A model generated the notes under the pieces. The model was not told the origin of the DNA. It made no database searches and saw only the letters and a program-made list of their open reading frames with translations. A program made the translations under genes and the position numbers. Positions 6,857 through 64,000 of a DNA stretch of 64,000 nt are shown one piece after another. Origin of the DNA: Pseudomonadales bacterium (GTDB lineage Bacteria; Pseudomonadota; Gammaproteobacteria; Pseudomonadales; Azotimanducaceae); contig JAPYTQ010000029.1 in assembly GCA_029941905.1 (NCBI GenBank), positions 1,659 through 65,658 of the forward strand. Direction: 5' to 3'. Position 1 is the first letter of the stretch. Each line of letters starts with the position of its first letter.

Positions 6857-7198
6857 ATGACCAAACAAGTTGATTGGTATTACTTCCGAAATGGATGAAC
6901 CACCTGCACTAAAGCATCCAAGTTCTTGGAAGCAGGCAAAGTGGAAATTAAAGAAAAAACTCCTGCCAGTAAGAAGCTGCAGGCCGCTGATGCGAAGCTG
7001 ATGCTGAAACAGGCTTCCCGGCTCATTGCCATGAAAGGCAAAAAGGTGGCTGAATTTCAGGGTGCAAAAGCGGTATCGAAAGAAGCGGTGGAAGCGACCC
7101 TGGGACCCACGGGCAACATGAGAGCGCCGACCATCAAGGTTGGCAAGACAGTGCTGGTTGGGTTCAATGAAGAAATATTTACCGACGTTTTCGGTTAG
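6857..7198 (+). CDS. ArsC/Spx-family thioredoxin-fold protein, candidate selenoprotein (TGA 6896-6898 read as Sec)
   Basis: ATG 6857 is preceded by AAGGAA with an 8-nt spacer. The product is MTKQVDWYYFRNG-U-TTCTKASKFLEAG..., 113 aa. The U aligns with the first Cys of the N-terminal CxxC of ArsC-family proteins. The ORF track shows only the TTG-started remnant 6926..7198. Confidence 0.7.
6914..6933 (+). other. candidate bacterial SECIS hairpin
   Basis: GC-A-UCCAA-GUUC-UUGGA-A-GC, folded by hand. It starts 15 nt after the UGA and has an apical GU-containing tetraloop. Confidence 0.4.
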
Positions 7199-7518
7199 AA
7201 CAGTGCGTCGTTAAGTGCAGCAAGCCAGGCCAGCAGCAGAATAAGGACTATCAACAGGTTTATTCTGACGATTAACCCGTAGCGTTTTTTTTTCTGTAGA
7301 TCCTGGGCGTCGGTTTGATAAACCTTACACACTAAGGCATCGAGCATAATGACGACGAATGTTATTGGCACCAGTGCCGGGATCACTGCGCCCAGAATGA
7401 TGTCCCATCCTCTCGGATTCCAGCTGGGTTCAGTGAAAGGCAGAATCAACAGGAACATAAAAGCCAGACCATGGAGCATGTTCCTGAGCAACCCCATTGA
7501 TTTCCATTTTTCTAACAA
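7195..7518 (-). CDS. small integral membrane protein, unknown function
   Basis: Three hydrophobic segments. The start is uncertain (TTG 7518 or ATG 7497). Contains an A9 run (7285-7293) encoding KKK. Confidence 0.45.
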   Translation of the reverse strand: MLEKWKSMGLLRNMLHGLAFMFLLILPFTEPSWNPRGWDIILGAVIPALVPITFVVIMLDALVCKVYQTDAQDLQKKKRYGLIVRINLLIVLILLLAWLAALNDALF

Positions 7519-7624: not shown

Positions 7625-10294
7625 GTGAAAAATTCCTTCACATTACTCATTGATGGCATGACCTGTAATCATTGTGAATCAACGGTGACCGGGGCGCTGG
7701 AACAACTCGGTGGGCAGGTCCGGGAAATAGATGCCGATACCGGAATTGCCCGTTTTGTATCAGATAGATGGATCCCGATTGATTCCGTAACGAATTCAGT
7801 TGAATCGGCCGGCTATTCCCTGAAAGCAGCATCGATAGCCGGTGAGCTCACCATCCCGGTGCAGGGAATGCAATTCGAAAAATGCCGGAAGCGGATTACT
7901 GGCGAGCTTCTGAAAATAGACGGCGTAGAGCGCGTTGTTGTACACCTGGACGCGAATCAGGTCATCGTATCAGGATCTGCAGATCTGTTGGCGATAATTG
8001 CGGGCATTAGGAATCAGGGATATGAAGTGGCCGAAACAGTTTCTGACGTCGAATTCCCCAAGCAGCCATCTGCAACTACGGTAGCATCGGCGAGTGAACA
8101 GGACTCGATTACCCCCACGAGGGAATCAGATTATTACCTGCAAATTCAAGGTATGTCCTGCGCCAGCTGCGTTTTAAGAGTGGAGAATACGCTTTCTGCT
8201 GTTCCCGGCGTCAGCGAAGCTTCAGTTAATTTTGCGGACGAAACTGCCTTTGTAAAAGGCGCCACCAGCCTGCAGGATCTGGTATCGGCAGTACAACGAT
8301 TAGGTTACGGCGCGGATCTGGTTGACCCGTCGGTTGATAAAGAACGGGTAATGATCGATCAGTTTAGAAAGGGAATTATTCGATCTGTTCTGGCTTTGGT
8401 TGGCGGCTCGCTACTCATGGCAGGGATGATGACCGGCTTGTTGCCGGGGATAGACAACAAAACCTTCTGGCTGATAACGGGCGTCGTGGTTTTAGGGTTG
8501 ATGGTATTTTCTGGTGGGCACTTTTATCGTAATGCGTGGCACTCAGCCAAATACTTCACCACGACCATGGACACGCTGATTGCGCTGGGAACAGGAACCG
8601 CCTGGTTGTATTCAATGCTGGTGATCATTGCGCCGATGCTTGTGCCTGAGGCCAGTCGGCACCTGTTTTTTGAAGCTGCGCTGTTTATTGTCGGTTTTAT
8701 CAACCTGGGTAAAAGCCTGGAACTCAATGCCCGGGGCAAAGCTTCCGGCGCCATTGAAAAACTGTTAGATTTGGCGCCTGATGAAGTCACCTTGCTGGTA
8801 AACGATGAGGAAACCCGGACTTCTCTACAACTCATCAAGGTAGGGGATTCGCTGCGGATTAAACCGGGTGACCGAATCCCCGTGGATGGCAGGATCATTG
8901 ATGGTTTCTCAAGTCTTGATGAATCGATGTTAAGTGGTGAACCCATTCCAGTTGATAAGCAGCCTGGCGACAGTGTGGCAGCCGGTACGATCAACCTGCA
9001 TGGCAGTTTTGTGATGCTCACCGAGCAGGTAGGTCGAGAAACCACACTGGCCAGAATGGTCAGCATGGTGAAACAAGCCCAGAACTCGAAACCCCCCATT
9101 GGCAAACTAACGGATTCAATTGCATCGGTTTTCGTCCCATTCGTGTTGCTGGTTGCGCTGGTGTGTATCGTTTACTGGGGCTTCCTTTCGTCTGACGGGG
9201 GCCTGACCCTCGTGATTGTTACCACCATGTCAGTATTGATTATTGCCTGCCCCTGCGCGCTCGGCCTGGCAATACCGATCTCCATTATGGTGGGCATCGG
9301 TCGGGGAGCGTCCCGGGGACTGTTGGTGCGTAACAGCGATGCGCTGCAAGCCGCGGCTGGCCTGGACACTATCGTACTGGACAAGACAGGCACATTGACT
9401 GAAGGAAAGCCGGAAGTCGTGGGTGTTTCGGTGTCACAGGGTTCTGATGAGAATCGGTTACTCGGCCTGGCTTACAGTCTGGAATCCTATTCCGAGCATC
9501 CACTGGCGAAGGCGGTTATCAATTACTGTGAACAACGCGGTATCAGTAAGCCAGTGGTCAGTGAATTCCGGATATCACCGGGTGGCGGCGTATCAGCCGA
9601 GGTCGATGGCGTGATGGTCCGGGCTGGGAACAGGCAATATCTAGTAGATTCCGGGATAGGATTTAGCCACCAGACCCAACCGGAAACAGGCACCGTCATT
9701 TATATTGCCGAAGGGTCGGAACTGCTGGGCAGCCTTGACCTGGATGACAAACTCAAGCCGGATTCCAAATCTGCCGTGGCTAAATTTCAGGCAAAGGGAA
9801 TCCATGTGGTTATTCTCTCCGGGGACAACGCGGCGAGCGTCAGCAAGGTTGCAGCACAACTCAATATTTCGGACTACCATGCCGGACTCACCCCTGAAGC
9901 CAAGTTGGAGAAGATCAGCGAAATGCAACGGGGTGGCCAAAAAGTGGCAATGGTGGGTGATGGCATCAATGATGCGCCCGCTCTGGGCATTGCAGATGTC
10001 GGTTTTGCGATGGGTGATGGCACCGATATCGCGATTGAAAGTGCGGATGTTGCCGTGGTTGGTAACCGATTGAGCCGGGTTGTCGAGGCGATCGAGATTT
10101 CCCGGCAAACCATGCGCAACATCTACCAGAATCTCTTTGGTGCCTTTGCCTACAATATTGTGTTGATTCCTGTGGCGGCCGGTGTCTTGTATCCCCTGTT
10201 GATCAGTCCGACATTTGCGGGCTTCGCCATGGCGATGTCGTCAGTGACGGTGGTGGCCAATGCTAACCGTTTGCGATTTGTCCGGCTGGACTAG
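7625..10294 (+). CDS. copA: copper-translocating P1B-type ATPase
   Basis: Three N-terminal HMA domains: GMTCNHC, a degenerate GMQFEKC, and GMSCASC. Also the CPC transmembrane motif, DKTGTLT, and the GDGINDAP hinge. Confidence 0.9.
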   Translation: MKNSFTLLIDGMTCNHCESTVTGALEQLGGQVREIDADTGIARFVSDRWIPIDSVTNSVESAGYSLKAASIAGELTIPVQGMQFEKCRKRITGELLKIDGVERVVVHLDANQVIVSGSADLLAIIAGIRNQGYEVAETVSDVEFPKQPSATTVASASEQDSITPTRESDYYLQIQGMSCASCVLRVENTLSAVPGVSEASVNFADETAFVKGATSLQDLVSAVQRLGYGADLVDPSVDKERVMIDQFRKGIIRSVLALVGGSLLMAGMMTGLLPGIDNKTFWLITGVVVLGLMVFSGGHFYRNAWHSAKYFTTTMDTLIALGTGTAWLYSMLVIIAPMLVPEASRHLFFEAALFIVGFINLGKSLELNARGKASGAIEKLLDLAPDEVTLLVNDEETRTSLQLIKVGDSLRIKPGDRIPVDGRIIDGFSSLDESMLSGEPIPVDKQPGDSVAAGTINLHGSFVMLTEQVGRETTLARMVSMVKQAQNSKPPIGKLTDSIASVFVPFVLLVALVCIVYWGFLSSDGGLTLVIVTTMSVLIIACPCALGLAIPISIMVGIGRGASRGLLVRNSDALQAAAGLDTIVLDKTGTLTEGKPEVVGVSVSQGSDENRLLGLAYSLESYSEHPLAKAVINYCEQRGISKPVVSEFRISPGGGVSAEVDGVMVRAGNRQYLVDSGIGFSHQTQPETGTVIYIAEGSELLGSLDLDDKLKPDSKSAVAKFQAKGIHVVILSGDNAASVSKVAAQLNISDYHAGLTPEAKLEKISEMQRGGQKVAMVGDGINDAPALGIADVGFAMGDGTDIAIESADVAVVGNRLSRVVEAIEISRQTMRNIYQNLFGAFAYNIVLIPVAAGVLYPLLISPTFAGFAMAMSSVTVVANANRLRFVRLD

Positions 10295-10417
10295 ATGTTT
10301 TTGGTGTTGCCGTAAAGTTGTATCTGGTTCATGATCTGCGGCGGCTAGTTAAAAAAACCGCTGTTGGTACAATTCCGAATCACCAAAACTGCAGTTTCAA
10401 GAAGCAAAGAGGCAATC

Positions 10418-11056
10418 ATGGTAGAGCCCGTTCATATTGAGGTATTTACAGACTACGTCTGACCCTGGTGTTATCTCAGTACCGTGAGTATTGAAAAGCT
10501 AAGGCAGGAAGAAAACGTTACGGTATCCTGGTCCTTTTTCCCCCTTCATCCGGAAACGCCTCCTGAAGGCAAGTCTCTGTCTGACCTGTTTAAAGGTCGT
10601 GAATCCCAGGTGCAGTCTTTCCAGAACCAGATCAAATCTCTGGCCGAGAAAGAAGGGTTGCCTTACGGTGATCGCTCGATGACTTACAACAGCAGATTGG
10701 CACAGGAACTGGGTAGCTGGGCTGATACGCAGGCAAATGGTGAGGCTTTACACGACGTACTGTATCGATCTTACTTTGTCGACAACGTGAATATCTCGGA
10801 TATCGATGTACTGGTCAGGCTGGCGGGGCAGGCAGGGTTGAAGGAGGAAGAGGCGCGTGACGTACTGCAAGATCGCCGGTTCAGCCAAAAAGTCGATGAA
10901 GATTGGCAAAGAGCCCGTGGTATGGGCCTCAGTGGTGTGCCTACGTTTGTGAGCTCAGAATTGTACGTCGTCGGTTGCCAGACTTATGATGTGCTGATGC
11001 GCTTCCTGAGCCATTTGCGTAAGCTCAAGTCCGAGGCAAAAACGAATTCTGCCTGA
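10418..11056 (+). CDS. DsbA/FrnE-family thiol:disulfide oxidoreductase, candidate selenoprotein (TGA 10460-10462 read as Sec)
   Basis: ATG 10418 is preceded by AAGAGG with a 5-nt spacer. The product is MVEPVHIEVFTDYV-U-PWCYLSTVSIEKL..., 212 aa. The family motif is CPWC, and the U sits at the first Cys. The ORF track shows only the GTG-started remnant 10484..11056. Confidence 0.75.
10476..10494 (+). other. candidate bacterial SECIS hairpin
   Basis: UCAGUA-CCGUGAG-UAUUGA, folded by hand: 6 bp including one G-U pair, with a 7-nt loop. It starts 13 nt after the UGA. Confidence 0.3.
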
Positions 11057-12937: not shown

Positions 12938-13708
12938 CTATCTGTTCGGGTTTAGCCGGGCCATTAAACCACCGATACCGCGAACCAGCCATCTGGGCTG
13001 ATGCTTGGCCCAGGTAATAGCAGCCTGATTGGTGACGCCGGGAATTCTGATTACTTCACGATTCATTAGCGCCGCGTAACCTTGTTGTGCAACATCTTCG
13101 GGGCTGGACATTAAGAAAGCCGGTACATTGGCGCTTTGAACATCTTCAATCATGTCCGTGCGGGTTATACCCGGACAAAGCGCTGTGACAAACACCCCGG
13201 TACCTTTTAGTTCTTCAGACAGGGATTCGGTTAGCGAAAGTACATAGGCCTTGCTGGCGGCATAAGCGGATAATGAGGGGACCGGTTGAAAGGAGGCCAC
13301 GGAGGCTACATTGAGTATTCTGCCGCTACCCCTGTTAATCATCCCTGGCAGAAAATTGCGCGTCAGCCTGGTCAGGCAAAAAATGTTGAGTGCGATCAGG
13401 TTCTCAATATCTGCCAGTGCCTGGTCATGAAATGAACCAGGGTAGGCAATTCCTGCATTGTTTACCAGCACATCAATGCGGGTATCGGAGAGTGAAGAGA
13501 CAAGGTGGTCAATGCCTTGATTCGTTGAGAGATCGCAGTCAATGACGTCGACATTGACCAATGACCTCAACTCGTCACCAATCTCTTCCAGCTTCGACAA
13601 TCTGCGTGCGGTGATCACAAGATCGAAGCCATTGGCCGCGAATTGACGTGCCAGAGCTTCGCCGATTCCCGACGAAGCACCCGTGATCAGCGCTGTGCCT
13701 TTAGTCAT
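12938..13708 (-). CDS. short-chain dehydrogenase/reductase (SDR)
   Basis: TGASSGIGEALA cofactor motif, NNAG, and a YAASK catalytic motif. Confidence 0.85.
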   Translation of the reverse strand: MTKGTALITGASSGIGEALARQFAANGFDLVITARRLSKLEEIGDELRSLVNVDVIDCDLSTNQGIDHLVSSLSDTRIDVLVNNAGIAYPGSFHDQALADIENLIALNIFCLTRLTRNFLPGMINRGSGRILNVASVASFQPVPSLSAYAASKAYVLSLTESLSEELKGTGVFVTALCPGITRTDMIEDVQSANVPAFLMSSPEDVAQQGYAALMNREVIRIPGVTNQAAITWAKHQPRWLVRGIGGLMARLNPNR

Positions 13709-13952
13709 CTGATTTCGTTTTCTCTTGCTCGTTGCCAGGTGTCCCGCCCATCATCTTTTGCAACCAGCTCTGATAAGCCATCATCGGTTGCATGGCGCTA
13801 TCCACGATGTCCTTGTATTGGGTCTGGTTGGAGTCTTTGAGAAATTGTTGCGCCCGATTGAGCATTTCCTGTTGCAGGCTCTCTACATTTGGAAGGCCTA
13901 TAAAACTACGCCGCTCTTCCGGGGTGATGTCCACATCGATTGTGATCTTCAT
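13701..13952 (-). CDS. small conserved protein often found beside phasin/PHA genes (DUF6489-like)
   Basis: MKITIDVDITPEERRSFIGLPNVESLQQEM... ATG 13952 has an AAGGA RBS. The gene overlaps the SDR start by 8 nt. The family name is recalled from memory, not searched. Confidence 0.5.
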   Translation of the reverse strand: MKITIDVDITPEERRSFIGLPNVESLQQEMLNRAQQFLKDSNQTQYKDIVDSAMQPMMAYQSWLQKMMGGTPGNEQEKTKSDD

Positions 13953-14048
13953 CAGTCGCCATCCTTTAGCCATAAACTGGGGAGTCTATTACAACCCAAA
14001 AACAGAAGGGCGCATAGCGCCCTTTAAAAATGCTGAATGACCGGGGGA

Positions 14049-14363
14049 TTAGCCATCAGTATTTGGTGCAAAAACTTGCTGAACTGCGTTAGTAGTATCT
14101 TCTACCGAGCTTTTCAAAATATCTGCCTGTACCTGGGTAGCATCCTTGATGCCGCTCCAGAGTGTCTCGGCATATTCACGTTGCAGTTCGATGAAACCCG
14201 CCACGTCTTTCACTTCAGGTAATTTGCTGGAGAAGTCACTGTTAAGTTCAAGATACTTGCGAAAATTTTCTTGCTGACTACTCATCAATGCCTGAAACAT
14301 ATTCTGGTTGATCTCGAAAAATGTCTTTCCCATTTCTGCTTGTGTCTGTAGATAACTCATCAT
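14049..14363 (-). CDS. phasin family protein
   Basis: About 100 aa, helical. The motif pattern F..NQ..F......EN..KYLELN......LPEVKDV..F..LQREY.ETLW is shared with the neighbouring paralog. Confidence 0.75.
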   Translation of the reverse strand: MMSYLQTQAEMGKTFFEINQNMFQALMSSQQENFRKYLELNSDFSSKLPEVKDVAGFIELQREYAETLWSGIKDATQVQADILKSSVEDTTNAVQQVFAPNTDG

Positions 14364-14386
14364 CTGGTCCTTTTTGTTAAGCCTAG

Positions 14387-14755
14387 TTACGCCGCTGCCT
14401 TTGCAGAGGTTTCTTCAGTTTTGGTTTCAGCTGGGGTCGCGGCTACTTCAGTTTCTTCTGCTGTCAAAGCCAGTTTCACTGCATCCCGGGTACCACTAAA
14501 CGCGCCTTTGACTATCTCTGTCTGTGCTTCAACGGCACCTCTGGCATTGTTCCAAAGTGTTTCGTTGTATTCTTTCTGTAAGCCCAGGAAATCAGAAATG
14601 CTGGTGATTTCCGGAAGTCGCTTGGCGAATTCGCGATTGGTCTCGAAATACTTGCTGATGTTCTCACGCTGGAGTTCGGCAATCTCTTTGATGGTGCTGG
14701 TGTTAATCTCGTAAAGTGACTTTCCGAGGTTGGTCTGTTTTTCAATAATGTTCAT
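14387..14755 (-). CDS. phasin family protein (tandem paralog, Ala/Glu/Thr-rich tail)
   Basis: Same motif pattern: LYEIN......ELQRENISKYFETN.EFAKRLPEITSISDFLGLQKEYNETLW. Confidence 0.75.
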   Translation of the reverse strand: MNIIEKQTNLGKSLYEINTSTIKEIAELQRENISKYFETNREFAKRLPEITSISDFLGLQKEYNETLWNNARGAVEAQTEIVKGAFSGTRDAVKLALTAEETEVAATPAETKTEETSAKAAA

Positions 14756-14784
14756 GTCGTTGTGTTTCCTGAGTTGTTCATATG

Positions 14785-14817
14785 TTGCGCTGCAGCATTA
14801 TATATTGCACTGCAACA
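14785..14817. promoter_or_regulatory. direct repeat TTGC(G/A)CTGCA(G/A)CA x2 upstream of the phasin gene (possible PhaR operator)
   Basis: TTGCGCTGCAGCA (14785-14797) and TTGCACTGCAACA (14805-14817), separated by TTATATA. Confidence 0.35.
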
Positions 14818-14922
14818 AATTCAAGCGGTTTTTCAGAATACTCGCTTATTTTTAGTGATTAGTCCGATTCAATGGCCCGGGGTCCTTCCTAAAATTTCTC
14901 ATAAGCCATTGATAAATTTAGA

Positions 14923-16431
14923 TTATGCAACCTTTGTGGGCACTTCGGCTACATCTTCAGAATCTTGATCCCCAGATAGCTCATTTTGCGTCCTGGACTG
15001 CAATTCCTGCCGTTCGATGATGTCAGTTACATTATCCGAAAGAACTAACTGCTTCAGTTCCATGAATGCGGCAACAATATCATCACGCAGAATGCTTGCG
15101 TCCGGCAGTGCTTTTTTGCATGCAGTAATACTAAAGTACAAGTCATCACAATAGCTTTGAACGGTGATGTTGAGACCCAGACCATGCGCGGGAATAGAGA
15201 CTGGATAGTGAGATAACATCTCTGCACCATTGGAGTAGAGTGTTTCACGGGGTCCGGGGACGTTCGAAATGACCAGATTGATGGGCATTGGCAGAACATC
15301 GCTCAAGCTAAGTTGCTCGTTTAGCACGGATGTCGCGGTGATCGTTGCGGGTAAACCGGGCAGTGCGACGTTAGGCTCGTATCCCTCGGCCAGTTCCGCG
15401 GTAACTTCCTTTGCTGTGTTAGCTGAGGCTTTGATTGCCAGCAACCTTGTACCAGGGTCTGCCAGATGCGTCGCCAGATTGACTTGCATCATGGTGACAT
15501 TGTTCCCCATTCCCTTATCACCGGGTTTCCTGAGGGATACGGGCGATCCCGCAATAAGTGGAGTGTCGGTCAATACGCCGAGTCGTAGCAGATAAGTTCG
15601 GAGCCCACCGGCGCAAACTGACATGAAAACGTCATTCACTTTGCAATCTAGTGACTTACCGATCTGCTTTGTCTGAGACAGTGACAGCTTACCGCAGGCA
15701 TATTCGCGGGTGGCACCGATTGAGCGGCTAAAGGAGGTGGTGGGTGCAACGTCGTTCAACGCACCAAAAGATTTTGATGGATCGATTGCTCTCTGGTTAA
15801 CCCGGACCATACTTTCCATGGATCCGAGATAGCGACTGACACTGTCGATCTGGAAGCTGACAAGATTTTCCCATGCCATGGTGAACAAATTGATTGAACT
15901 TTTCTGTTCACCGTCGAGCAGGTCCGCAGGAACCTGGTGAACCGGGTGATCCGGTGAGTTGTCCATCAACAGCATGGTGGCCGCCTGTCCAGCCATGCCG
16001 TCCAGGCAAGCGTGGTGGGCCTGGTTGTAGTAGGCGATATTTCCGTCTTCGAGACCTGTTATCACGTAAACAGCCCACAGCGGCTTGCTTCGATCCATGG
16101 GTGCGCTGTGCAATTGCGCGACTTTCTGTTCGAGCTGGCGCATGCTGCCCGGCGCATCAAGGGGAACCTCAATGATGTGGTTTTCGATATTGAATTCAGT
16201 ATCTGTGATCCACACCGGGTGGTCCAGATTGAACGGTGTGAACTTTATTTTCCGTGTCAGGTATGGGACAAGATGGATTCGGCCGTTCAGAAATGTTTTC
16301 AGGCCGTTGCAGAACTCACTCGCCGATGTGTTCTGCGGCAGGGCAAATTGTTGCAGGGACGCGACGTGATTGAACACCGTGTCTGTTTCTGAATAAAGGA
16401 AGTTTGCATCCAGGGCACCAAGTTTTTCCAT
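14923..16431 (-). CDS. wax ester synthase / diacylglycerol acyltransferase (WS/DGAT)
   Basis: HHACLDG active-site motif (HHxxxDG), an N-terminal LDANFLY motif, and about 500 aa. ATG 16431 is preferred (GGAG upstream); the ORF extends to 16452. Confidence 0.85.
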   Translation of the reverse strand: MEKLGALDANFLYSETDTVFNHVASLQQFALPQNTSASEFCNGLKTFLNGRIHLVPYLTRKIKFTPFNLDHPVWITDTEFNIENHIIEVPLDAPGSMRQLEQKVAQLHSAPMDRSKPLWAVYVITGLEDGNIAYYNQAHHACLDGMAGQAATMLLMDNSPDHPVHQVPADLLDGEQKSSINLFTMAWENLVSFQIDSVSRYLGSMESMVRVNQRAIDPSKSFGALNDVAPTTSFSRSIGATREYACGKLSLSQTKQIGKSLDCKVNDVFMSVCAGGLRTYLLRLGVLTDTPLIAGSPVSLRKPGDKGMGNNVTMMQVNLATHLADPGTRLLAIKASANTAKEVTAELAEGYEPNVALPGLPATITATSVLNEQLSLSDVLPMPINLVISNVPGPRETLYSNGAEMLSHYPVSIPAHGLGLNITVQSYCDDLYFSITACKKALPDASILRDDIVAAFMELKQLVLSDNVTDIIERQELQSRTQNELSGDQDSEDVAEVPTKVA

Positions 16432-16806
16432 GTTCTTGTCTCCAGTTTTCAATAGTCGATTTCCACATACGCACTAACGCCTGCACTGAACAGCGCCACG
16501 CTATCGATGTAATGCTATAAAAATAAGATGGGTATCCGTGTCGCGAGGTTCCAGACGCTTTTTGGGGTGACTGCGGGGACCTGCTGTGGACAACGAGCGC
16601 GGATTATAAACGGCTCTTGGTTTGAGTCAACCACTTTTTGTGCATCGCGCAATAAAGTTCAATTTTGTGAAGCTGTTAACAAATCTGCGACCTGGAGCAG
16701 CGGTTAAATGCTTGATTCCATTGTGTAAGTCGGACAAACTCAATCACGTTTTTCACTGCAACATAGCGCACTCTCTCAGTATGTGTAAGTACGTAAAATA
16801 TGAGGT

Positions 16807-17607
16807 ATGGATTTGTACGAAGAACTTGATGTAGAAAGTTATCGCGTTGAAACTCCATCGATTTTCAATTCGTTAACAGAAATTCCAAGGACACTCCTGG
16901 AAATTGGCACGCTTTCGATTAGCTTTCCAGTGCTGTCCAGCTTACCCAAGGGAGACAAACACCCCGTCATGCTTGTCCCAGGGTTTATGGCAGGTGATGA
17001 GTCAACTGTGGTGTTGCGGCGCTATCTTTCGTGTATGGGATACAAACCTTCTGGTTGGGGTTTGGGAAGAAATACCGGGCATCCAGAAATCATAGAGCGA
17101 ACCTTGATTGAAAAATTTCATCAACTATTTGAGGAACATCAACAGAAAGTTAGCCTGATTGGTCAAAGTTTAGGTGGTATATTTGCGAGAGAGCTGGGCC
17201 GTTTATTTCCTGATAAGGTCCGGCAGGTGATTACCCTCGGTAGCCCTTTTTCGATGGCCAATGGCGGGGGGTCGAATCTCCTGGTGCAGAAGTTGTTTGA
17301 ACAACAGTCAAGGATGAGCGTTGAAATGATGCGTGAACGTCTGGAGACAGATCAAAGCCCACCGATTCCCCTGACCGCGGTTTATAGCCGTGGTGATGGC
17401 GTTGTACACTGGCGCGGTTGTATGGAAACTGAACTGGACCACCAGACCCAGAATATTGAGGTATTCGGAAGCCACTGCGGTATGGGTTTTAATCCCGCTG
17501 TTTATTACATTATTGCAGATAGGCTTGCCCAGCCGGAGAATAGATGGAGACTGTTTCAGTCGCGGGTCCCTGGTGTGGTGCACCCGATGAATGAAGACGA
17601 GAATTAA
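16807..17607 (+). CDS. alpha/beta-hydrolase (lipase/esterase-like)
   Basis: GQSLGG nucleophile elbow (GxSxG) and PVMLVPGF before it. Confidence 0.7.
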   Translation: MDLYEELDVESYRVETPSIFNSLTEIPRTLLEIGTLSISFPVLSSLPKGDKHPVMLVPGFMAGDESTVVLRRYLSCMGYKPSGWGLGRNTGHPEIIERTLIEKFHQLFEEHQQKVSLIGQSLGGIFARELGRLFPDKVRQVITLGSPFSMANGGGSNLLVQKLFEQQSRMSVEMMRERLETDQSPPIPLTAVYSRGDGVVHWRGCMETELDHQTQNIEVFGSHCGMGFNPAVYYIIADRLAQPENRWRLFQSRVPGVVHPMNEDEN

Positions 17608-57699: not shown

Positions 57700-60618
57700 A
57701 TGTTTATAAAGAAAAAACCGCTGTCGCTGGCTGTCTCGAGCGCGTTGGCTGTTGCAACGTGTGCGGGGGTGCTTACCAGCAATGCTTACGCAGAAGACGA
57801 TGATGCGATAATGGAGGAGGTCATTGTTACCGGCTCAAGGATCAGAAGCAGCAATGTGGTCAGTTCCAGTCCGGTGACTCAGGTCAGCGCCGATGAAATG
57901 ATATTTCAAGGCACAGCTCGTGTTGAGGATATGATGCGCAACCTGCCACAGGTCTATTCCAACCAGAACACCGGCCAATCAAATGGCGCTACAGGTACAG
58001 CGACGATTAACCTGAGGAATCTGGGAGATGCACGTACTCTGGTGTTACTTAACGGCCGCCGTATGCCTGCAGGGTCACCTATAGGGGTTGGTGTTGACAT
58101 TAACCAGATCCCCGGCGCTTTGATTCAGACAATTGAAATATTGACCGGAGGCGCGTCCGCAACCTATGGTTCCGACGCCGTTGCCGGTGTTGTCAACTTT
58201 ATCATGATGGATGATTTTGAAGGCGTGAAGCTGGATTACCAGTTTAGCCAGTACAACCATGACAATGATAACAGCAGCATGCAGGGTATCGTGACCGATG
58301 CAGGTTTTCCAACTGCCAAGGGCACTAATACAGATGGAGACATCAGCGATGTCTCATTCATCATCGGCGGCAACTTTGACAATGGCCGTGGTAATGCGAC
58401 AGCCTACGGTACCTATCGTAAAATCAATGCTGTACGCCAGAGCGAACGCGACTACAGTGCCTGTGCACTTAACAATGACGCAACCGGGTGCTTCGGTTCC
58501 GGTACTATTCCGGAAGGACGTGTAACTGATTTCGGAATTCCCGGTGATGTTAAACGTAGTATTGTTCCCACCGCGAGCGACGGCTCCTTCGACTTCAAAG
58601 TTGCAGGTACCGAATTCGTGGATCGCGCTGGGACAGTGTATAACTATGGCCCGCTGAATTATTATCAACGTCCTGATGAGCGATACACTGGAGGCGCGTT
58701 CGCACACTACGAGATCACTGATCAGGTAGAAGTGTACTCCGAGTTGATGTTCGTGGATGACCACACAGTGTCACAGATTGCGCCATCGGGTGCTTTTTTC
58801 ATTACCAATGAGATTCCCTGTGGCAACCCGCTATTATCTGCTCAGCAGTTTCAGGAACTTTGCGGCCAGTTCGGTTTAACCACTGCAGACACTCAATTTG
58901 CGTACCTGGGCCGTCGTAATGTGGAGGGTGGACCGCGTCAATATGACCTGCGTCACACAACCTACCGCGGTGTGATTGGTCTGCGTGGGGATTTTAACGA
59001 CACATGGAGCTACGATGTTTCCGGTCAGTACTCTGAAGTCAGCATGGAAAGTACCTACCTGAATGACCTGTCCATTCCGAAAATTAAGAATGCACTGAAT
59101 GCGGTTGATGACGGCAGTGGTAATACCGTATGTCAATCCGTCGTCGATGGCTCTGACCCGAACTGTGTACCTTGGAATATTTTCGAAACCGGCGCTGTGA
59201 CCCAGGATATGATTGATTATCTGGTCTTACCCTTGTTTGCACGTGGTACGACTGATCAGAAGGTGATTATAGGTTATGTGACCGGTGCTCTGGGTGACTA
59301 CGGCGTGGCACTACCATGGGCTTCACGAGGTATTGACGTTGTGATCGGTGGAGAATACCGGAAGGAAAATCTCAACTTCAACCCGGATAGCGGCTTCCGT
59401 AACGGCTTGGGTGCTGGTCAGGGCGGTGCAACCGGACCCGTTAGCGGCGGATACGATGTTAGTGAGATCTTCTTTGAAGCCAGCATTCCAGTGATTGAAG
59501 GGGCGCCGGGAGCCGAGGAACTTGTCTTTGATCTGGGTTACCGTTATTCCGACTACTCCACAGATCAGACAACGGATACCTACGGCATCCGTGGTGGCTG
59601 GGCGATTAACAACAGCATTAAAATACGCGCCAGCTTCCAGCGAGCGGTCCGTGCTGCAAACATCCAGGAATTGTTCCTGCCTCAGGGCTTTAACTTATTC
59701 GATATGGATGTGGATCCTTGTGGTGACGCAGTCCCTGCTCGTAGCCTGGCAGATTGTGCGAATTCAGGTGTAACGGCTGCTCAGTATGGCAGCATACCGA
59801 ATTCACCAGCAGGCCAGTATAACTTCTTGCAGGGCGGCAACCCTGACCTTGCGCCGGAAGAAGCTGATACTTACTCCGTTGGTGTTGTTTGGTCTCCAGG
59901 GTTTATAGAAGGCCTGACGCTCTCAGTCGACTACTATGACATCGAGATCGAGCTGGGTATTAGTAACCAGACACCAGAATTCATTCTGAACGAATGTCTT
60001 GATGGCAACACGTCTCAATGTGCTGATGTCAATCGCGGTAATGCAGGAGACCTGTGGATTGGTTCAAATGTCAACGCCAGTGGCCATATCCGCGCATTGC
60101 AGGACAACCTTGCAATCGAGAGAGTCACGGGCTTTGACGTTATTGCGACCTACTCCATAGAGATTGGTGACATGGGTAGCCTGGACTTCCACAATATCAT
60201 GGGAGTTATTGATACCTGGGATCAGCAGGAACTTGAGGGTGCTCCCACGGTTGATTGTAAGGGTAACTGGGGTTCCACTTGTGGTTACCCCACACCTGAT
60301 TTCCAGAACAATCTGCGGGTTACCTGGATTACCCCATGGAATGTGACTGCCAGCGGATTGTGGCGTTACATCAGTGAGGTTGAGGATCTCAATGGAAATC
60401 TGGATCTCGATGATATCAACTATTTCGATATAGCGGGTACCTGGGATGTTACCGAACAGGTCGCGCTTACAGCAGGTATTACCAACGTTTTTGATGAAGA
60501 GCCTCCGATTGCTGGTAACGCCGCCGGACCTTCCATCAACGGTAACGGAAACATCTTCCCAGGTATGTACGATGCTTTGGGACGTTACTGGTTTGCACGT
60601 GTTAGTGTAGGCATGTAA
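57700..60618 (+). CDS. TonB-dependent receptor
   Basis: Signal peptide ...SNAYAEDD, EEVIVTGSR, plug motifs (IEILTGGASATYGSDAVAGVVNF), and a C-terminal YWFARVSVGM. Confidence 0.9.
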   Translation: MFIKKKPLSLAVSSALAVATCAGVLTSNAYAEDDDAIMEEVIVTGSRIRSSNVVSSSPVTQVSADEMIFQGTARVEDMMRNLPQVYSNQNTGQSNGATGTATINLRNLGDARTLVLLNGRRMPAGSPIGVGVDINQIPGALIQTIEILTGGASATYGSDAVAGVVNFIMMDDFEGVKLDYQFSQYNHDNDNSSMQGIVTDAGFPTAKGTNTDGDISDVSFIIGGNFDNGRGNATAYGTYRKINAVRQSERDYSACALNNDATGCFGSGTIPEGRVTDFGIPGDVKRSIVPTASDGSFDFKVAGTEFVDRAGTVYNYGPLNYYQRPDERYTGGAFAHYEITDQVEVYSELMFVDDHTVSQIAPSGAFFITNEIPCGNPLLSAQQFQELCGQFGLTTADTQFAYLGRRNVEGGPRQYDLRHTTYRGVIGLRGDFNDTWSYDVSGQYSEVSMESTYLNDLSIPKIKNALNAVDDGSGNTVCQSVVDGSDPNCVPWNIFETGAVTQDMIDYLVLPLFARGTTDQKVIIGYVTGALGDYGVALPWASRGIDVVIGGEYRKENLNFNPDSGFRNGLGAGQGGATGPVSGGYDVSEIFFEASIPVIEGAPGAEELVFDLGYRYSDYSTDQTTDTYGIRGGWAINNSIKIRASFQRAVRAANIQELFLPQGFNLFDMDVDPCGDAVPARSLADCANSGVTAAQYGSIPNSPAGQYNFLQGGNPDLAPEEADTYSVGVVWSPGFIEGLTLSVDYYDIEIELGISNQTPEFILNECLDGNTSQCADVNRGNAGDLWIGSNVNASGHIRALQDNLAIERVTGFDVIATYSIEIGDMGSLDFHNIMGVIDTWDQQELEGAPTVDCKGNWGSTCGYPTPDFQNNLRVTWITPWNVTASGLWRYISEVEDLNGNLDLDDINYFDIAGTWDVTEQVALTAGITNVFDEEPPIAGNAAGPSINGNGNIFPGMYDALGRYWFARVSVGM

Positions 60619-60649
60619 ATATCCGCAGTATCAACTGAAACATTTTGTT

Positions 60650-60680
60650 AAGGCCAACCTAAGTGTTGGCCTTTCTTTTT
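60650..60680 (+). terminator. rho-independent terminator
   Basis: AAGGCCAAC-CTAAGT-GTTGGCCTT hairpin followed by TCTTTTT. Confidence 0.7.
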
Positions 60681-60713
60681 GGTCTGAAGTTGAATTCGCT
60701 AAGAGGTTCAAGC

Positions 60714-60989
60714 ATGAAATTCATGCATTTGATGGGTATTCTTGCCATCACGATTTTACTACAGGCTTGCACCAGCTCAAGCGACTCGGGCAACGCACGG
60801 TCGCAACTCGCCGATGCTAACTATGATCCCGATAGAATACGGTGCAAGACACAAGCCGTGACCGGTTCACGACTCGGGGTCAGGATTTGCATGACAAATC
60901 GCGATTGGAATGTGCAGCACGAGGATGCTCGTGAAGCGATGGAACATATTAAACGCGGGACCATATTCAGCCCAGAGTCAAACAGGTAA
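60714..60989 (+). CDS. small lipoprotein, unknown function
   Basis: AAGAGG RBS, lipobox LLQAC, and two further Cys in an R.C....VTGSR.....C.T..DW pattern. Confidence 0.55.
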   Translation: MKFMHLMGILAITILLQACTSSSDSGNARSQLADANYDPDRIRCKTQAVTGSRLGVRICMTNRDWNVQHEDAREAMEHIKRGTIFSPESNR

Positions 60990-61072
60990 GTAATCCACGA
61001 GGTTGAACCAAGATTTCAGCTCGGTCGGATTGCTGTCATGGCAGTTCGCTATGGACGCTATCGAGATTACAG

Positions 61073-62530
61073 TTAACCGACGGACTTGAGTAAGTTCCCA
61101 ACGACCCTTTCGAGATGTACCAGCGAGTTACACACTTCGGTTTGGTGGCAGCAGGGTGCGTATTTTTTCATTTCAGCATCGCCAACGGTCCAGCTGGATT
61201 TCGGCTCCGGATTCAGCCAGATCACCCGCTTGGATTTGTCGTACATTTCCCGAAGAATTTCCGCATGGGGCTCACCGTAGTTGTTTCTTGCATCCCCCAG
61301 AATAATGATTGTGGTCTTGTTGTTGACGTCATCCATACAGTGACTTTTGAAGTCCTGGAACATGCGACCATAATCCGTTGAGCCATTGCCATAATCGCGC
61401 ATGGTCCGGGCCATGGCTTCCTCAAGATTACTGTGTTCGAATAATTTGGTGACTTCACCAAGATCGGAAGAAAAAGCGAAGGAGCGAACCTTCGGCAGGA
61501 TTTCAGCGAGGCTGAACAGGAACATCAGCAGAAAACGTGAGTAATTACTCACTGACCCGCTGACGTCGCAAATACACATGACCTTGGGTCGGTCGACTTT
61601 TTTTGACTTCCATTTTATGTCGAAGAACATGCCGTCATACTGCATGTTGTGTCGCAGCGTTTTGCGCACATCCAACTGTCCGCGTTTATAGGTTTTGCGT
61701 CTCTTGGAGTGGATGGCAATCAGTTTCTTGGCCATCTTGAAGACGACTTCCTGTACATCTTTGAAGTTGCGCTTTTCCAGGTTCGAGAGTTTGACCTTCT
61801 TCAGCAGCTCTTCGCGAAGCTGTTTACCGGACTCGTCCGCATGGAGGAAAAATTGCTTCTCGACATAGTCGCGGACACGTTCACGGAGCAGATCCCGTAC
61901 TTTTTTTAGATTATGCGCCAGGCGTTTTTGCGGAATGCCACCATGACCCTGTAACTCGGCGACTTCTTCCTGTAGTCCCTTGAGTCCCATGGCGTCCATA
62001 ATCTTGCGGGTAAACAGACCCTTCTGGGTGAAGACGACGATCTGGTTAACCTCAACCTCTCGACCCGCTTCCATCATCGCGATCATCTGCTCTGTCTTGG
62101 TCCCCTCGGTAAGCAGCTTGCCCAGCTCGGATGTTGCCTGCATGGTTGATTCCGAGCTCAGATCCTCGTGTTCGCCGCCACCCTGGCCGCCACCACCCTG
62201 GCCACCGCCTTTGCCGGACTGTTGGTTGTTGGCATCAGGGTTGAATTCTCCCTCATCATCGAACGCATCCGAGTCAGCATCCGGGGAATCCTGTTCGTTT
62301 TGCGTTGGCTTGAATTCCTCGATGCTAAAAAAACTGTCGAAACAGGAGTCGAATGTCTCCTTCTCCTCCGGGGTTTTTGCCAGCACCATGGACAGGGAGT
62401 TCTTCAGGAACACCTTGTCTTCGTAGCCAACAAGATCCATGCATTGCATGGCGTCCAGTGTTTCAGCCGGAGAGACTTTTAATTCGGCGGTACGCAGAAC
62501 CTTGACGAATTCGACCAGGGTGCGATCCAT
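61073..62530 (-). CDS. vWA domain protein, CoxE-like
   Basis: N-terminus FVKVLRTAELKVSPAETLDA, a Gly/Gln-rich acidic linker, and a C-terminal vWA (CDVSGSV MIDAS). Follows the MoxR gene. Confidence 0.75.
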   Translation of the reverse strand: MDRTLVEFVKVLRTAELKVSPAETLDAMQCMDLVGYEDKVFLKNSLSMVLAKTPEEKETFDSCFDSFFSIEEFKPTQNEQDSPDADSDAFDDEGEFNPDANNQQSGKGGGQGGGGQGGGEHEDLSSESTMQATSELGKLLTEGTKTEQMIAMMEAGREVEVNQIVVFTQKGLFTRKIMDAMGLKGLQEEVAELQGHGGIPQKRLAHNLKKVRDLLRERVRDYVEKQFFLHADESGKQLREELLKKVKLSNLEKRNFKDVQEVVFKMAKKLIAIHSKRRKTYKRGQLDVRKTLRHNMQYDGMFFDIKWKSKKVDRPKVMCICDVSGSVSNYSRFLLMFLFSLAEILPKVRSFAFSSDLGEVTKLFEHSNLEEAMARTMRDYGNGSTDYGRMFQDFKSHCMDDVNNKTTIIILGDARNNYGEPHAEILREMYDKSKRVIWLNPEPKSSWTVGDAEMKKYAPCCHQTEVCNSLVHLERVVGNLLKSVG

Positions 62531-62545
62531 ATTTAGCGTCCTGTC

Positions 62546-63496
62546 CTAATTCTCTTTTAGTGCCTTGTTGGTCACACTCTGGATCTCTGCTTCGACGGTT
62601 TCAATATCTTCCTGGAACTTGAGAATCACATTGAGCGTCTGGCGCACCAGGTCGGTGTCGAGCGAATCTGAATGGAGCAAAATCAAAGTCCGTGCCCAGT
62701 CGATGGTCTCGCTAATCGCAGGCACCTTCTTCAGGTCCATGTCGCGTAGTTCCTGAACAAAAGTCACCATCTGGTTGCGTAGTTTTTCGGCAATTTCAGG
62801 GACCCGTGCCTGGACGATTTTCTGTTCAAGCGTCGCATCGGGGAAAGGGATATAGAGATGCAGGCATCGGCGCTTCAATGCGTCTGAAATTTCCCGCGTA
62901 TTATTACTGGTCAGGAAGACCAGTGGTTTTTTATCTTTGTTCGCTTTTATGGTGCCAATTTCCGGAATAGATAGTTGAAAGTCAGACAGCATTTCGAGTA
63001 ACAGGGATTCGAATTCATGGTCCGATTTATCGACTTCATCGATCAGCAGGACGCAGCCTTCTTGGTGACGAAGCGCTTTCAGCAATGGTCTGGGTTCAAG
63101 GAATTCGTCGGAGAAGAAAATGTCCCCAAATTCGTGCAGTTTGGCAACTGACTCGGTTAACCCCGTGGCACCGTCCAGAATTTCACCCAGGGTTTCCTTC
63201 AGCACCTGGGTATAGAGCAACTGCTTGCCGTACTTCCATTCGTAAATCGCCTTGGATTCATCCAGACCTTCGTAACACTGCAGGCGAATACACTCGACTT
63301 CCAACATGTCGGCCGCAGTTTTTGCCAGCTCTGTCTTTCCTACGCCAGGAGGACCTTCTATAAGAATAGGTTTCTCCAGATGATAGGCGAGGAAAACCGC
63401 AGTCGCTATTTGCAAATTACAGATGTAGTGGAGTTTCTCAAAATTCTCTTGAATGGCCTCGACACTAGCCAGCTTGTCTTCGTTCTTAAGGGACAC
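62546..63496 (-). CDS. MoxR-family AAA+ ATPase (CoxD-like)
   Basis: Walker A GPPGVGKTELAK, Walker B LLIDEVDK, about 316 aa. GTG start. Confidence 0.85.
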   Translation of the reverse strand: MSLKNEDKLASVEAIQENFEKLHYICNLQIATAVFLAYHLEKPILIEGPPGVGKTELAKTAADMLEVECIRLQCYEGLDESKAIYEWKYGKQLLYTQVLKETLGEILDGATGLTESVAKLHEFGDIFFSDEFLEPRPLLKALRHQEGCVLLIDEVDKSDHEFESLLLEMLSDFQLSIPEIGTIKANKDKKPLVFLTSNNTREISDALKRRCLHLYIPFPDATLEQKIVQARVPEIAEKLRNQMVTFVQELRDMDLKKVPAISETIDWARTLILLHSDSLDTDLVRQTLNVILKFQEDIETVEAEIQSVTNKALKEN

Positions 63497-63956
63497 GCGA
63501 TTTCCTTTACTTTGGAGTTCTATAATACTGCAGTGGATATGAGCGGGGCATTATGTAAATCCCTCCAACAATTGTACAGCTAAGGTGTATATATCATAGA
63601 GAAGTATTAGTTTGAATAAGGAAGATTGATCTGTCGATGTCAGTGGTTCAAGTCGTGATTTGTCAGAATCAACCAGACAGATTGTCCGGATCGTTGAAAA
63701 TTGCAAATGGTTCGATCGAGATTGTTCTTAAAACTGACTGATTTCAATGGTTTAGGAGACATAAGGCACAGATCACATTGGTGCAAGTATGTATTCCGCC
63801 AGGGTGAAAGTGTGATAAAGTACGCGCCATAATAAGTACAGGCATGCATCCTGGGGGAAAGCTATCAATCAGAGCAGACTCCGCCGTCGTCGGAAGACCT
63901 CCGACAAGGCATCAGGTGGGGTGGCAAGCCATCGTTACACCATAACGAGTAAGCAT

Positions 63957-64000
63957 GGCAAAAGAATTTACGACAGCATTACTGATGGATGAACTGGCGA
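63957..64000 (+). CDS. 5' end of an unidentified CDS (continues beyond window)
   Basis: ATG then MAKEFTTALLMDELA, open to the window edge. Too short to classify. Confidence 0.3.

Follow-up and report, generated by a model that had tools for sequence, protein, structure and literature searches.

We describe a gene, at positions 10418-11056 of a 64,000-nucleotide (nt) stretch of DNA (the window; contig JAPYTQ010000029.1, positions 1,659 to 65,658) from the Pseudomonadales bacterium assembly GCA_029941905.1, which very probably encodes a cytoplasmic FrnE-type selenoprotein of the DsbA family with selenocysteine (Sec, U) in the active site U15-P-W-C18. That the gene encodes a selenoprotein had been proposed in an earlier note drawn up from the letters of the sequence, and it is now strongly supported by the pairing of Sec and cysteine (Cys) codons across homologs, by coding constraint on both sides of the in-frame TGA, and by a covarying hairpin of the Sec insertion sequence (SECIS) type that is confined to the TGA forms. 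The gene is a further member of a subfamily already published in 2005 and does not constitute a new family, because one of the 2005 members (AACY01028493) is 49% identical to it and carries the same hairpin. The features of the gene are as follows:

10407..10412, + strand: Shine-Dalgarno-like AAGAGG with a 5-nt spacer to the ATG, read directly from the sequence
10418..11056, + strand: predicted coding sequence of the DsbA-like (FrnE-type) selenoprotein, 212 residues including the TGA codon; Sec is residue 15 and its own stop is TGA 11054-11056
10460..10462, + strand: in-frame TGA, the proposed Sec codon (U15), which takes the place of the nucleophilic first Cys in CPWC
10460..10471, + strand: predicted redox motif U-P-W-C (UxxC), U15-P16-W17-C18
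10476..10494, + strand: SECIS-type hairpin with 5' arm 10476-10482, loop 10483-10487 (CGUGA) and 3' arm 10488-10494
10484..11056, + strand: truncated open reading frame (ORF) of public annotation, 190 residues from a GTG start, without the active site
10937..10942, + strand: codons V174-P175, the conserved V-P loop

The gene model and the conservation of the TGA codon

The start codon, ATG 10418-10420, lies upstream of GTG 10484 in the same frame, and translation from it yields MVEPVHIEVFTDYV*PWCYLSTVSIEKL... The mechanically generated ORF list instead calls the gene from GTG 10484 with 190 residues, and the Joint Genome Institute (JGI) gene call P0001 (3300001683, GBIDBA_10001151) is identical to this truncated ORF. 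As the earlier note had argued, such a start costs the protein its active site: the product would lack strand beta-1, which starts at residue 8 in the structural model considered below, along with the whole active site. The alternative that it offered, an ATG at 10418 in the same frame and preceded by AAGAGG at a 5-nt distance, is found exactly there, and the joined product does come to 212 residues when the TGA codon is counted.

With the TGA read as Cys, the protein matches the Pfam family PF01323 (DSBA) over residues 7-195 (E=2.5e-31; 109.4 bits against a gathering cut-off of 25.6), in an alignment that spans the TGA. Among solved structures, FrnE of Deinococcus radiodurans (E=2.8e-24) and SCO1869 are nearest to it in sequence. 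The CPWC of FrnE aligns to [TGA]PWC, with the TGA codon opposite its Cys22, in keeping with the position that had been proposed for the TGA at the first Cys of the motif. The AlphaFold model of a Cys-form relative, P0040, which is 52% identical and serves as a proxy (predicted local distance difference test score, pLDDT, 94.7), superposes on the FrnE structures that are its top Foldseek matches (5CO3/5XWH/5CNW) with a template modelling (TM) score of 0.91 and a root-mean-square deviation of 1.8 A. The structures of periplasmic DsbA proteins are distant from the same proxy, with TM scores of about 0.5-0.6. P16, W17 and C18 are invariant (80/80 of the sequences compared), as are V174 and P175 (80/80), and the fold family points to the latter two as the cis-proline loop of thioredoxin-fold proteins.

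The homolog scan, which was run with one genome per species, returned 80 loci, one of which is cut off before the Sec codon. Together with the window, this makes 80 compared sequences that fall into 36 TGA forms (35 loci and the window) and 44 Cys forms. Thus, the codon homologous to 10460-10462 is TGA in 35/79 loci and TGC or TGT in the other 44/79. Going by the titles of their records, the TGA forms come from Pseudomonadales, the OM182 clade, Pseudohongiellaceae, other Gammaproteobacteria and Burkholderiales, and also from Acidobacteriota, Planctomycetota, Gemmatimonadales and Latescibacterota. At 45-83% identity and from different phyla, these loci are not assembly copies of one another.

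The coding constraint reaches across the TGA. The upstream peptide x-x-[DE]-[VI]-[FY]-[ST]-D-[YF]-[VI] is in frame in all 35 TGA loci, the motif F/Y-x-D-Y/F-V/I-[TGA]-P-W-C-Y-L is kept in them, and in nearly all of them a start codon lies 13-16 codons before the TGA. Over the nine codons upstream of the TGA, the mean pairwise differences are 2.5, 1.0 and 5.1 at codon positions 1, 2 and 3, respectively. Judged by these sequence comparisons, purifying selection acts on the 14 upstream codons. The in-frame upstream peptide, the conserved starts and the third-position bias therefore rule out that the locus is a pseudogene, that the TGA is an error of sequencing and that the gene starts at GTG 10484. 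Moreover, the decayed or frameshifted orthologous N-termini that the earlier note had named as speaking against its proposal are not seen, as the 35 TGA loci are intact and 44 homologs have Cys.

A neighbor-joining tree, which carries no support values, places all TGA forms in one of its halves, where they make up three groups. Two of the groups adjoin Cys forms of the same taxa, and the half with the Rhodospirillales is wholly Cys. Because the sequence of the hairpin is common to all three TGA groups, Sec was probably ancestral in the TGA-containing half and later gave way to Cys in some lineages.

We also encountered TGA-form genes in metagenome-assembled genomes (MAGs) labelled as Flavobacterium sp. 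(L006), Bordetella parapertussis (L027) and Glaciecola sp. (L012). In L006, the flanking genes for CopA and an M61 peptidase are 50-65% identical to those of the Pseudomonadales clade. This suggests mis-binned contigs or mislabelled MAGs for the three rather than a true occurrence of the gene in those taxa.

The misreading of the gene extends through public protein predictions. Across the top 120 homolog clusters, the residue at the Sec/Cys position is Cys in 71, W in 6, G in 2 and R in 1, and 40 have no active site because the call is truncated. The W, G and R clusters were checked at the DNA level with one example each. Trp is found in the public predictions P0002, P0003, P0004, P0025, P0032 and P0071. 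The DNA codon in P0003 (L085, Logan SRR32105530_26057) is TGA, so that its W stems from the TGA=Trp code used by the gene caller on a short contig. The G and R have a different source: locus L086 (JGI 3300080035 contig Ga0669134_0181488) has GGA (Gly) at the Sec position and locus L087 (ENA ERZ23491408 scaffold_104551) has CGA (Arg), each one substitution away from TGA and each with the hairpin intact downstream. Hence, the notion that W, G and R at this position are all artefacts of genetic codes 4 or 25 is only partly right. The latter two loci could represent a recent loss of the Sec codon, that is inactivation, or errors of reads or assembly. The JGI contig GBIDBA_10001151 of 3300001683, which matches the window, has both this gene and a neighboring ArsC-family selenoprotein gene called short (190 and 85 residues). 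As the present gene, its ArsC-family neighbor and dozens of orthologs are thus mis-annotated in public records, the selenoproteome is under-counted in marine Pseudomonadales, Pseudohongiellaceae and several other phyla.

The hairpin downstream of the TGA codon

A hairpin folded by hand in the earlier note, at 10476-10494 and beginning 13 nt after the TGA, is present as described, with 7 base pairs and a 5-nt loop, and forms the core of the predicted minimum-free-energy fold. What raises it above chance is the comparison across homologs. When nucleotides are counted from the U of the UGA, its helix is formed by nt 17-23 and 29-35. Among the 36 TGA forms (31 distinct sequences), this helix is paired in 99.1% of cells, as against 25-44% in slid-register controls in which the 3' partner was moved by 1-3 nt. 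Pair 19-33 changes from A-U to U-A, G-C or U-G, pair 21-31 from U-A to C-G, and pair 20-32 from G-U to G-C or A-U. Double compensatory changes occur in two of the seven pairs (19-33 and 21-31), in 7 cells, and 0/500 column shuffles reached the observed covariation score or the observed number of double-changed cells. RNAalifold, unaided, returned the identical helix. The second nucleotide of the loop, G25 (window position 10484), is invariant. Most Cys forms do not keep pairs 18-34, 22-30 and 23-29, which form in 11, 7 and 9, respectively, of 43 distinct sequences. Further, third codon positions vary about 4-fold less in the stem (0.12) than elsewhere in the stretch (0.48), and this suppression points to a constraint at the level of RNA atop that of coding. 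A conserved and covarying structure after the TGA, on which the earlier note had let its proposal stand or fall, is therefore present across orthologs.

The comparison of 36 TGA forms with 44 Cys forms thereby lends covariation support to the SECIS of the DsbA-like selenoproteins, for which the literature from 2005 onward, in the parts available to us, gives predictions from single sequences. In its placement, the hairpin resembles the SECIS of Escherichia coli fdhF, which is likewise a hairpin within the coding sequence directly 3' of the UGA, with an apical loop that is small and includes G-U. In numbering from the U of UGA, this loop occupies nt 22-25 (GGUC) in fdhF and, 2 nt farther away, nt 24-28 (CGUGA) in the window. 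The two differ in that they have no sequence similarity, that the 7-bp stem in the window is uninterrupted and lacks a bulged U, and that its stem-loop is predicted to be less stable.

Relation to known proteins, predicted mechanism and competing explanations

Selenoproteins of this type have been on record for two decades. As far as the available portions of these sources go, Zhang, Fomenko and Gladyshev 2005 (PMC1088965) reported nine sequences of a "DsbA-like protein" (COG2761, UXXC) from the Sargasso Sea, a DsbA-like selenoprotein family appeared in a 2006 catalogue from sequenced genomes, and reviews of 2022 and 2026 (the latter PMC13188914) list "DsbA-like protein (form 1), PF01323, UxxC". 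One of these, AACY01028493 from the 2005 supplement (E=1e-74), reads …KVFIDYIuPWCYLSTVSIEKLK…VGCQPYEIL…, in which the segment U-P-W-C-Y-L-S-T-V-S-I-E-K-L is identical to that of the window protein, and the cysteine of G-C-Q near the C-terminus is shared with it. Its DNA after the TGA is TGACCATGGTGTTATCTCAGTACTGTAAGTATTGA, and the DNA of the hairpin is as in the window (CTCAGTAC-loop-GTATTGA). It stems from a different organism, the contig that matches the window being from a deep-sea plume metagenome. Another DsbA-like entry from the Sargasso Sea, AACY01178397, is much more distant at 26% identity.

Both by sequence and by the fold of the proxy, the best solved relative is FrnE (DR_0659; PDB 5CNW/5CO3/5CP1), a cytoplasmic CPWC disulfide reductase/isomerase that is inducible by cadmium and whose mutant is sensitive to cadmium and diamide (PMC8945050). 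FrnE has no signal peptide and a CP(W/F)C motif, comparable to the UPWC of the window protein with 14 residues before it. Since these 14 residues leave no room for a signal peptide, the window protein is predicted to be cytoplasmic like FrnE. The two are about 30% identical and differ in that FrnE has Cys in place of Sec and a C-terminal CXXXXC tail, which regenerates its active site (PMC8945050). Neither the window protein nor any of the 80 relatives examined possesses such a tail, and re-reduction in this family would therefore follow a route other than that of FrnE. Its absence does not disqualify the protein from the FrnE subfamily because some FrnE homologs are also without it (PMC8945050). 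A third cysteine of the window protein, C187 (codon 10976-10978), lies in the G-C-Q motif at the start of the last helix and might be an extra redox-active residue. It is a feature of the gammaproteobacterial clade: an equivalent occurs in 22/36 TGA forms and in both Cys forms from Gammaproteobacteria, and the position is Ala in 42/44 Cys forms and in FrnE. With the periplasmic DsbA proteins, the window protein has in common a thioredoxin fold with a helical insertion, an active site of the CxxC type and the V-P loop. In contrast, these proteins are exported and re-oxidised by DsbB, and an active site that begins at residue 15, as in the window protein, makes a signal peptide impossible.

By the mechanism that we propose, translation would start at ATG 10418, and the SECIS would recruit SelB together with guanosine triphosphate (GTP) and Sec-tRNA(Sec), such that Sec would be inserted at the UGA instead of termination. 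Decoding in this organism would be SelB-dependent. The product would then cycle between the selenol/thiol and the selenenylsulfide (Se-S) states. By analogy with related enzymes, Sec15 would act as the attacking nucleophile, one expected to be more reactive than Cys, and Cys18 as the resolving residue, and the analogy with FrnE points to disulfide reductase/isomerase activity. What is known of how Sec is decoded is left unchanged by these findings.

Several observations weigh against a functional selenoprotein of this kind. The fold of the single sequence is not significant (z = -0.52), the stem-loop alone comes to just -4.8 kcal/mol, and Rfam, searched at gathering thresholds across the window and permissively at 10400-10560, gave no match in the former case and no relevant one in the latter. 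Most of the stem pairs show no variation at all, for which protein constraint on L-S-T-V-S-I-E could be partly responsible. The structural model is that of the Cys-form proxy P0040 and not of the window protein itself. In the literature available to us in part, experimental incorporation of selenium (Se) is reported for no member of the DsbA-like family, and the available part of the 2026 review (PMC13188914) describes the functions of these selenoproteins as largely uncharacterised. Finally, no selA, selB, selD or tRNA-Sec gene turned up in the window itself, over roughly 8 kb outside it or in the sequence flanking most related loci. The search by tblastn, with E. coli SelA, SelB and SelD against the window, the 80 related loci and the extra flanks, matched only generic GTPases, all in Cys-form loci, and ARAGORN detected no tRNA genes in the window. 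Since these genes were not found in the searched sequence, we only infer Sec decoding in this organism. One related locus, L024 of a proteobacterial MAG, does have a tRNA-Sec gene (1008-1099, + strand, anticodon TCA), 1.2 kb upstream of its TGA-form DsbA-like gene, called by both ARAGORN and Rfam RF01852 (77.5 bits; gathering score 47), and this counts, like the second TGA-bearing gene of the window, as good indirect evidence for Sec decoding. The tRNA-Sec gene lies between ORFs for a thioredoxin-reductase-like flavoprotein and a CoA-transferase, neither of which is a sel gene.

That the machinery was not found bears most directly on the possibility that the gene is intact by descent and is no longer decoded, the Sec machinery having been lost so that only a truncated, inactive product is made. 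The rare relatives that lost the TGA by a single substitution and kept the hairpin (GGA in L086, CGA in L087) also point that way. However, the absence of sel genes from about 72 kb says very little because they normally lie elsewhere in the genome. Moreover, two different selenoprotein genes in the window retain both TGA and hairpin, with orthologs in L003-L005 that do so too, and the ORF is free of other lesions, with its ribosome-binding site and start intact. We hence regard a stranded gene as very unlikely. A reading of the UGA by a route other than SelB, whether near-cognate suppression with Trp or Cys or an alternative genetic code (4 or 25), could draw on the W found in 6/120 top homolog clusters and on the sequence context, as termination at UGA is generally seen as leaky when a C follows. 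In P0003, however, the W is a TGA translated with a different code, and the TGA-bearing genomes (Proteobacteria, Acidobacteriota and others) use code 11. In the window itself, TGA ends 8/45 long ORFs, this gene included, and a code in which TGA is a sense codon is ruled out there since it serves as a stop. A scan of the window for other genes interrupted by TGA gave only the DsbA-like and ArsC-family genes. Leaky suppression would also leave unexplained a covarying hairpin that is found only with the TGA and at the distance of a SECIS, and Trp or Gly in place of the nucleophile would inactivate a CxxC enzyme. Such readthrough is accordingly highly improbable.

That the TGA is a nonsense mutation of TGC or TGT in a pseudogene, or an error of sequencing or assembly, with a real product, if any, of 190 residues, is how public gene callers in effect treat the gene (P0001; 40/120 top clusters are truncated), and a TGA is indeed one substitution away from both codons. 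Against this, the TGA recurs at one and the same codon, both in the Sargasso reads of 2005 and across 35 species-level genomes that are independent of one another, the 14 upstream codons are constrained and their starts conserved, and the GTG-10484 product would be devoid of strand beta-1 and of the entire active site. Because the 35 loci with TGA at the same codon are not copies of one another, these sequences effectively refute this explanation, which we hold to be extremely improbable. The Sec-containing FrnE-type protein is thus the interpretation with which we consider the surrounding genes.

The CopA-linked gene neighborhood

Three further features lie upstream of the DsbA-like gene:

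6857..7198, + strand: predicted ArsC-family selenoprotein gene, with TGA 6896-6898 in the motif G-U-T-T-C (NF041106)
7195-7518, - strand: small unannotated membrane ORF between the ArsC-family selenoprotein and CopA genes, with no family match
7625..10294, + strand: CopA-type copper-translocating P-type ATPase with HMA domains (Pfam E1-E2_ATPase/HMA/Hydrolase; TIGR01511)

The earlier note had counted two candidate selenoproteins in the window, and the second of them, the ArsC-like gene, is backed by a match above cut-off to the curated NCBIfam model NF041106, 'ArsC family (seleno)protein' (112.7 bits vs 85), with no Pfam match at 1e-3. Its product is MTKQVDWYYFRNG[U]TTCTKASKF..., and the JGI call of the gene, as mentioned, is truncated to 85 residues. 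The TGA and a hairpin of the form GCAUCCAAG-UUYU-UUGGAAGC are kept in L003, L004 and L005. The judgment that the hairpin of the DsbA-like gene is the weaker of the two holds in the single-sequence folds (z = -0.52 vs -1.90). As a second candidate, the ArsC-family gene offers indirect support, at the level of sequence, that the genome reads UGA as Sec.

The CopA product matches NCBIfam TIGR01511 with 584.5 bits (cut-off 397), and its gene is followed, after 123 nt, by the DsbA-like gene in the same orientation. The intergenic region between the two has no detected promoter-like site and no detected terminator-like site on the + strand. The order of ArsC-family selenoprotein, membrane ORF on the opposite strand, CopA and DsbA-like selenoprotein is syntenic in L003-L005, and the CopA-DsbA pair in L001-L006. 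The CopA linkage is absent from the more distant TGA forms and from all Cys forms, no neighbor was found that is shared across the whole DsbA-like family, and no inverted repeats or operator-like sites shared by the upstream regions of the three cluster genes were found. Because the linkage to CopA is thus specific to a clade, the link to copper is a hint only: more speculatively, the adjacency of CopA may point to some function under metal or thiol stress.

One could go further and see in the two selenoproteins that flank CopA in OM182-like marine Pseudomonadales a conserved Se-dependent module for copper/thiol stress, which might, for example, repair non-native disulfides formed by copper catalysis or handle cytoplasmic Cu-thiolate adducts; the cadmium phenotype of FrnE is a loose precedent for it, and we consider such a module unlikely. 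It is also conceivable, again speculatively, that the two selenoproteins are partners, as the DsbA-like YjbH binds the ArsC-family protein Spx: YjbH structures (6GHB/6GHO) are among the fold neighbors of the proxy P0040, with a TM score of about 0.7. The parallel may be a coincidence between two thioredoxin-fold proteins. In the available parts of the literature on DsbA-like selenoproteins, we found no mention of an adjacency to CopA and an ArsC-family selenoprotein. The conserved arrangement of ArsC-family selenoprotein, CopA and DsbA-like selenoprotein is a mildly new element, and as it ties the last of these to a copper exporter and to another selenoprotein, it furnishes a testable lead to the function of an uncharacterised family.

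Farther along the window, the region 13566-17600 (JGI calls, L083) holds what looks like a storage-lipid cluster of the polyhydroxyalkanoate (PHA) type, with two phasins, a wax-ester synthase/diacylglycerol acyltransferase (DGAT) and a regulator of polyhydroxybutyrate (PHB) accumulation, which appears to be unrelated to the genes considered above. None of the public contigs retrieved coincides with the whole window, and GBIDBA_10001151 stops about 6 kb short of its end. The genes at the right end of the window (about 57850-64000) have identical copies on GBIDBA_10002407, another contig of that metagenome, and on GCA_012960755.1, GCA_029936055.1 and GCA_029935995.1.

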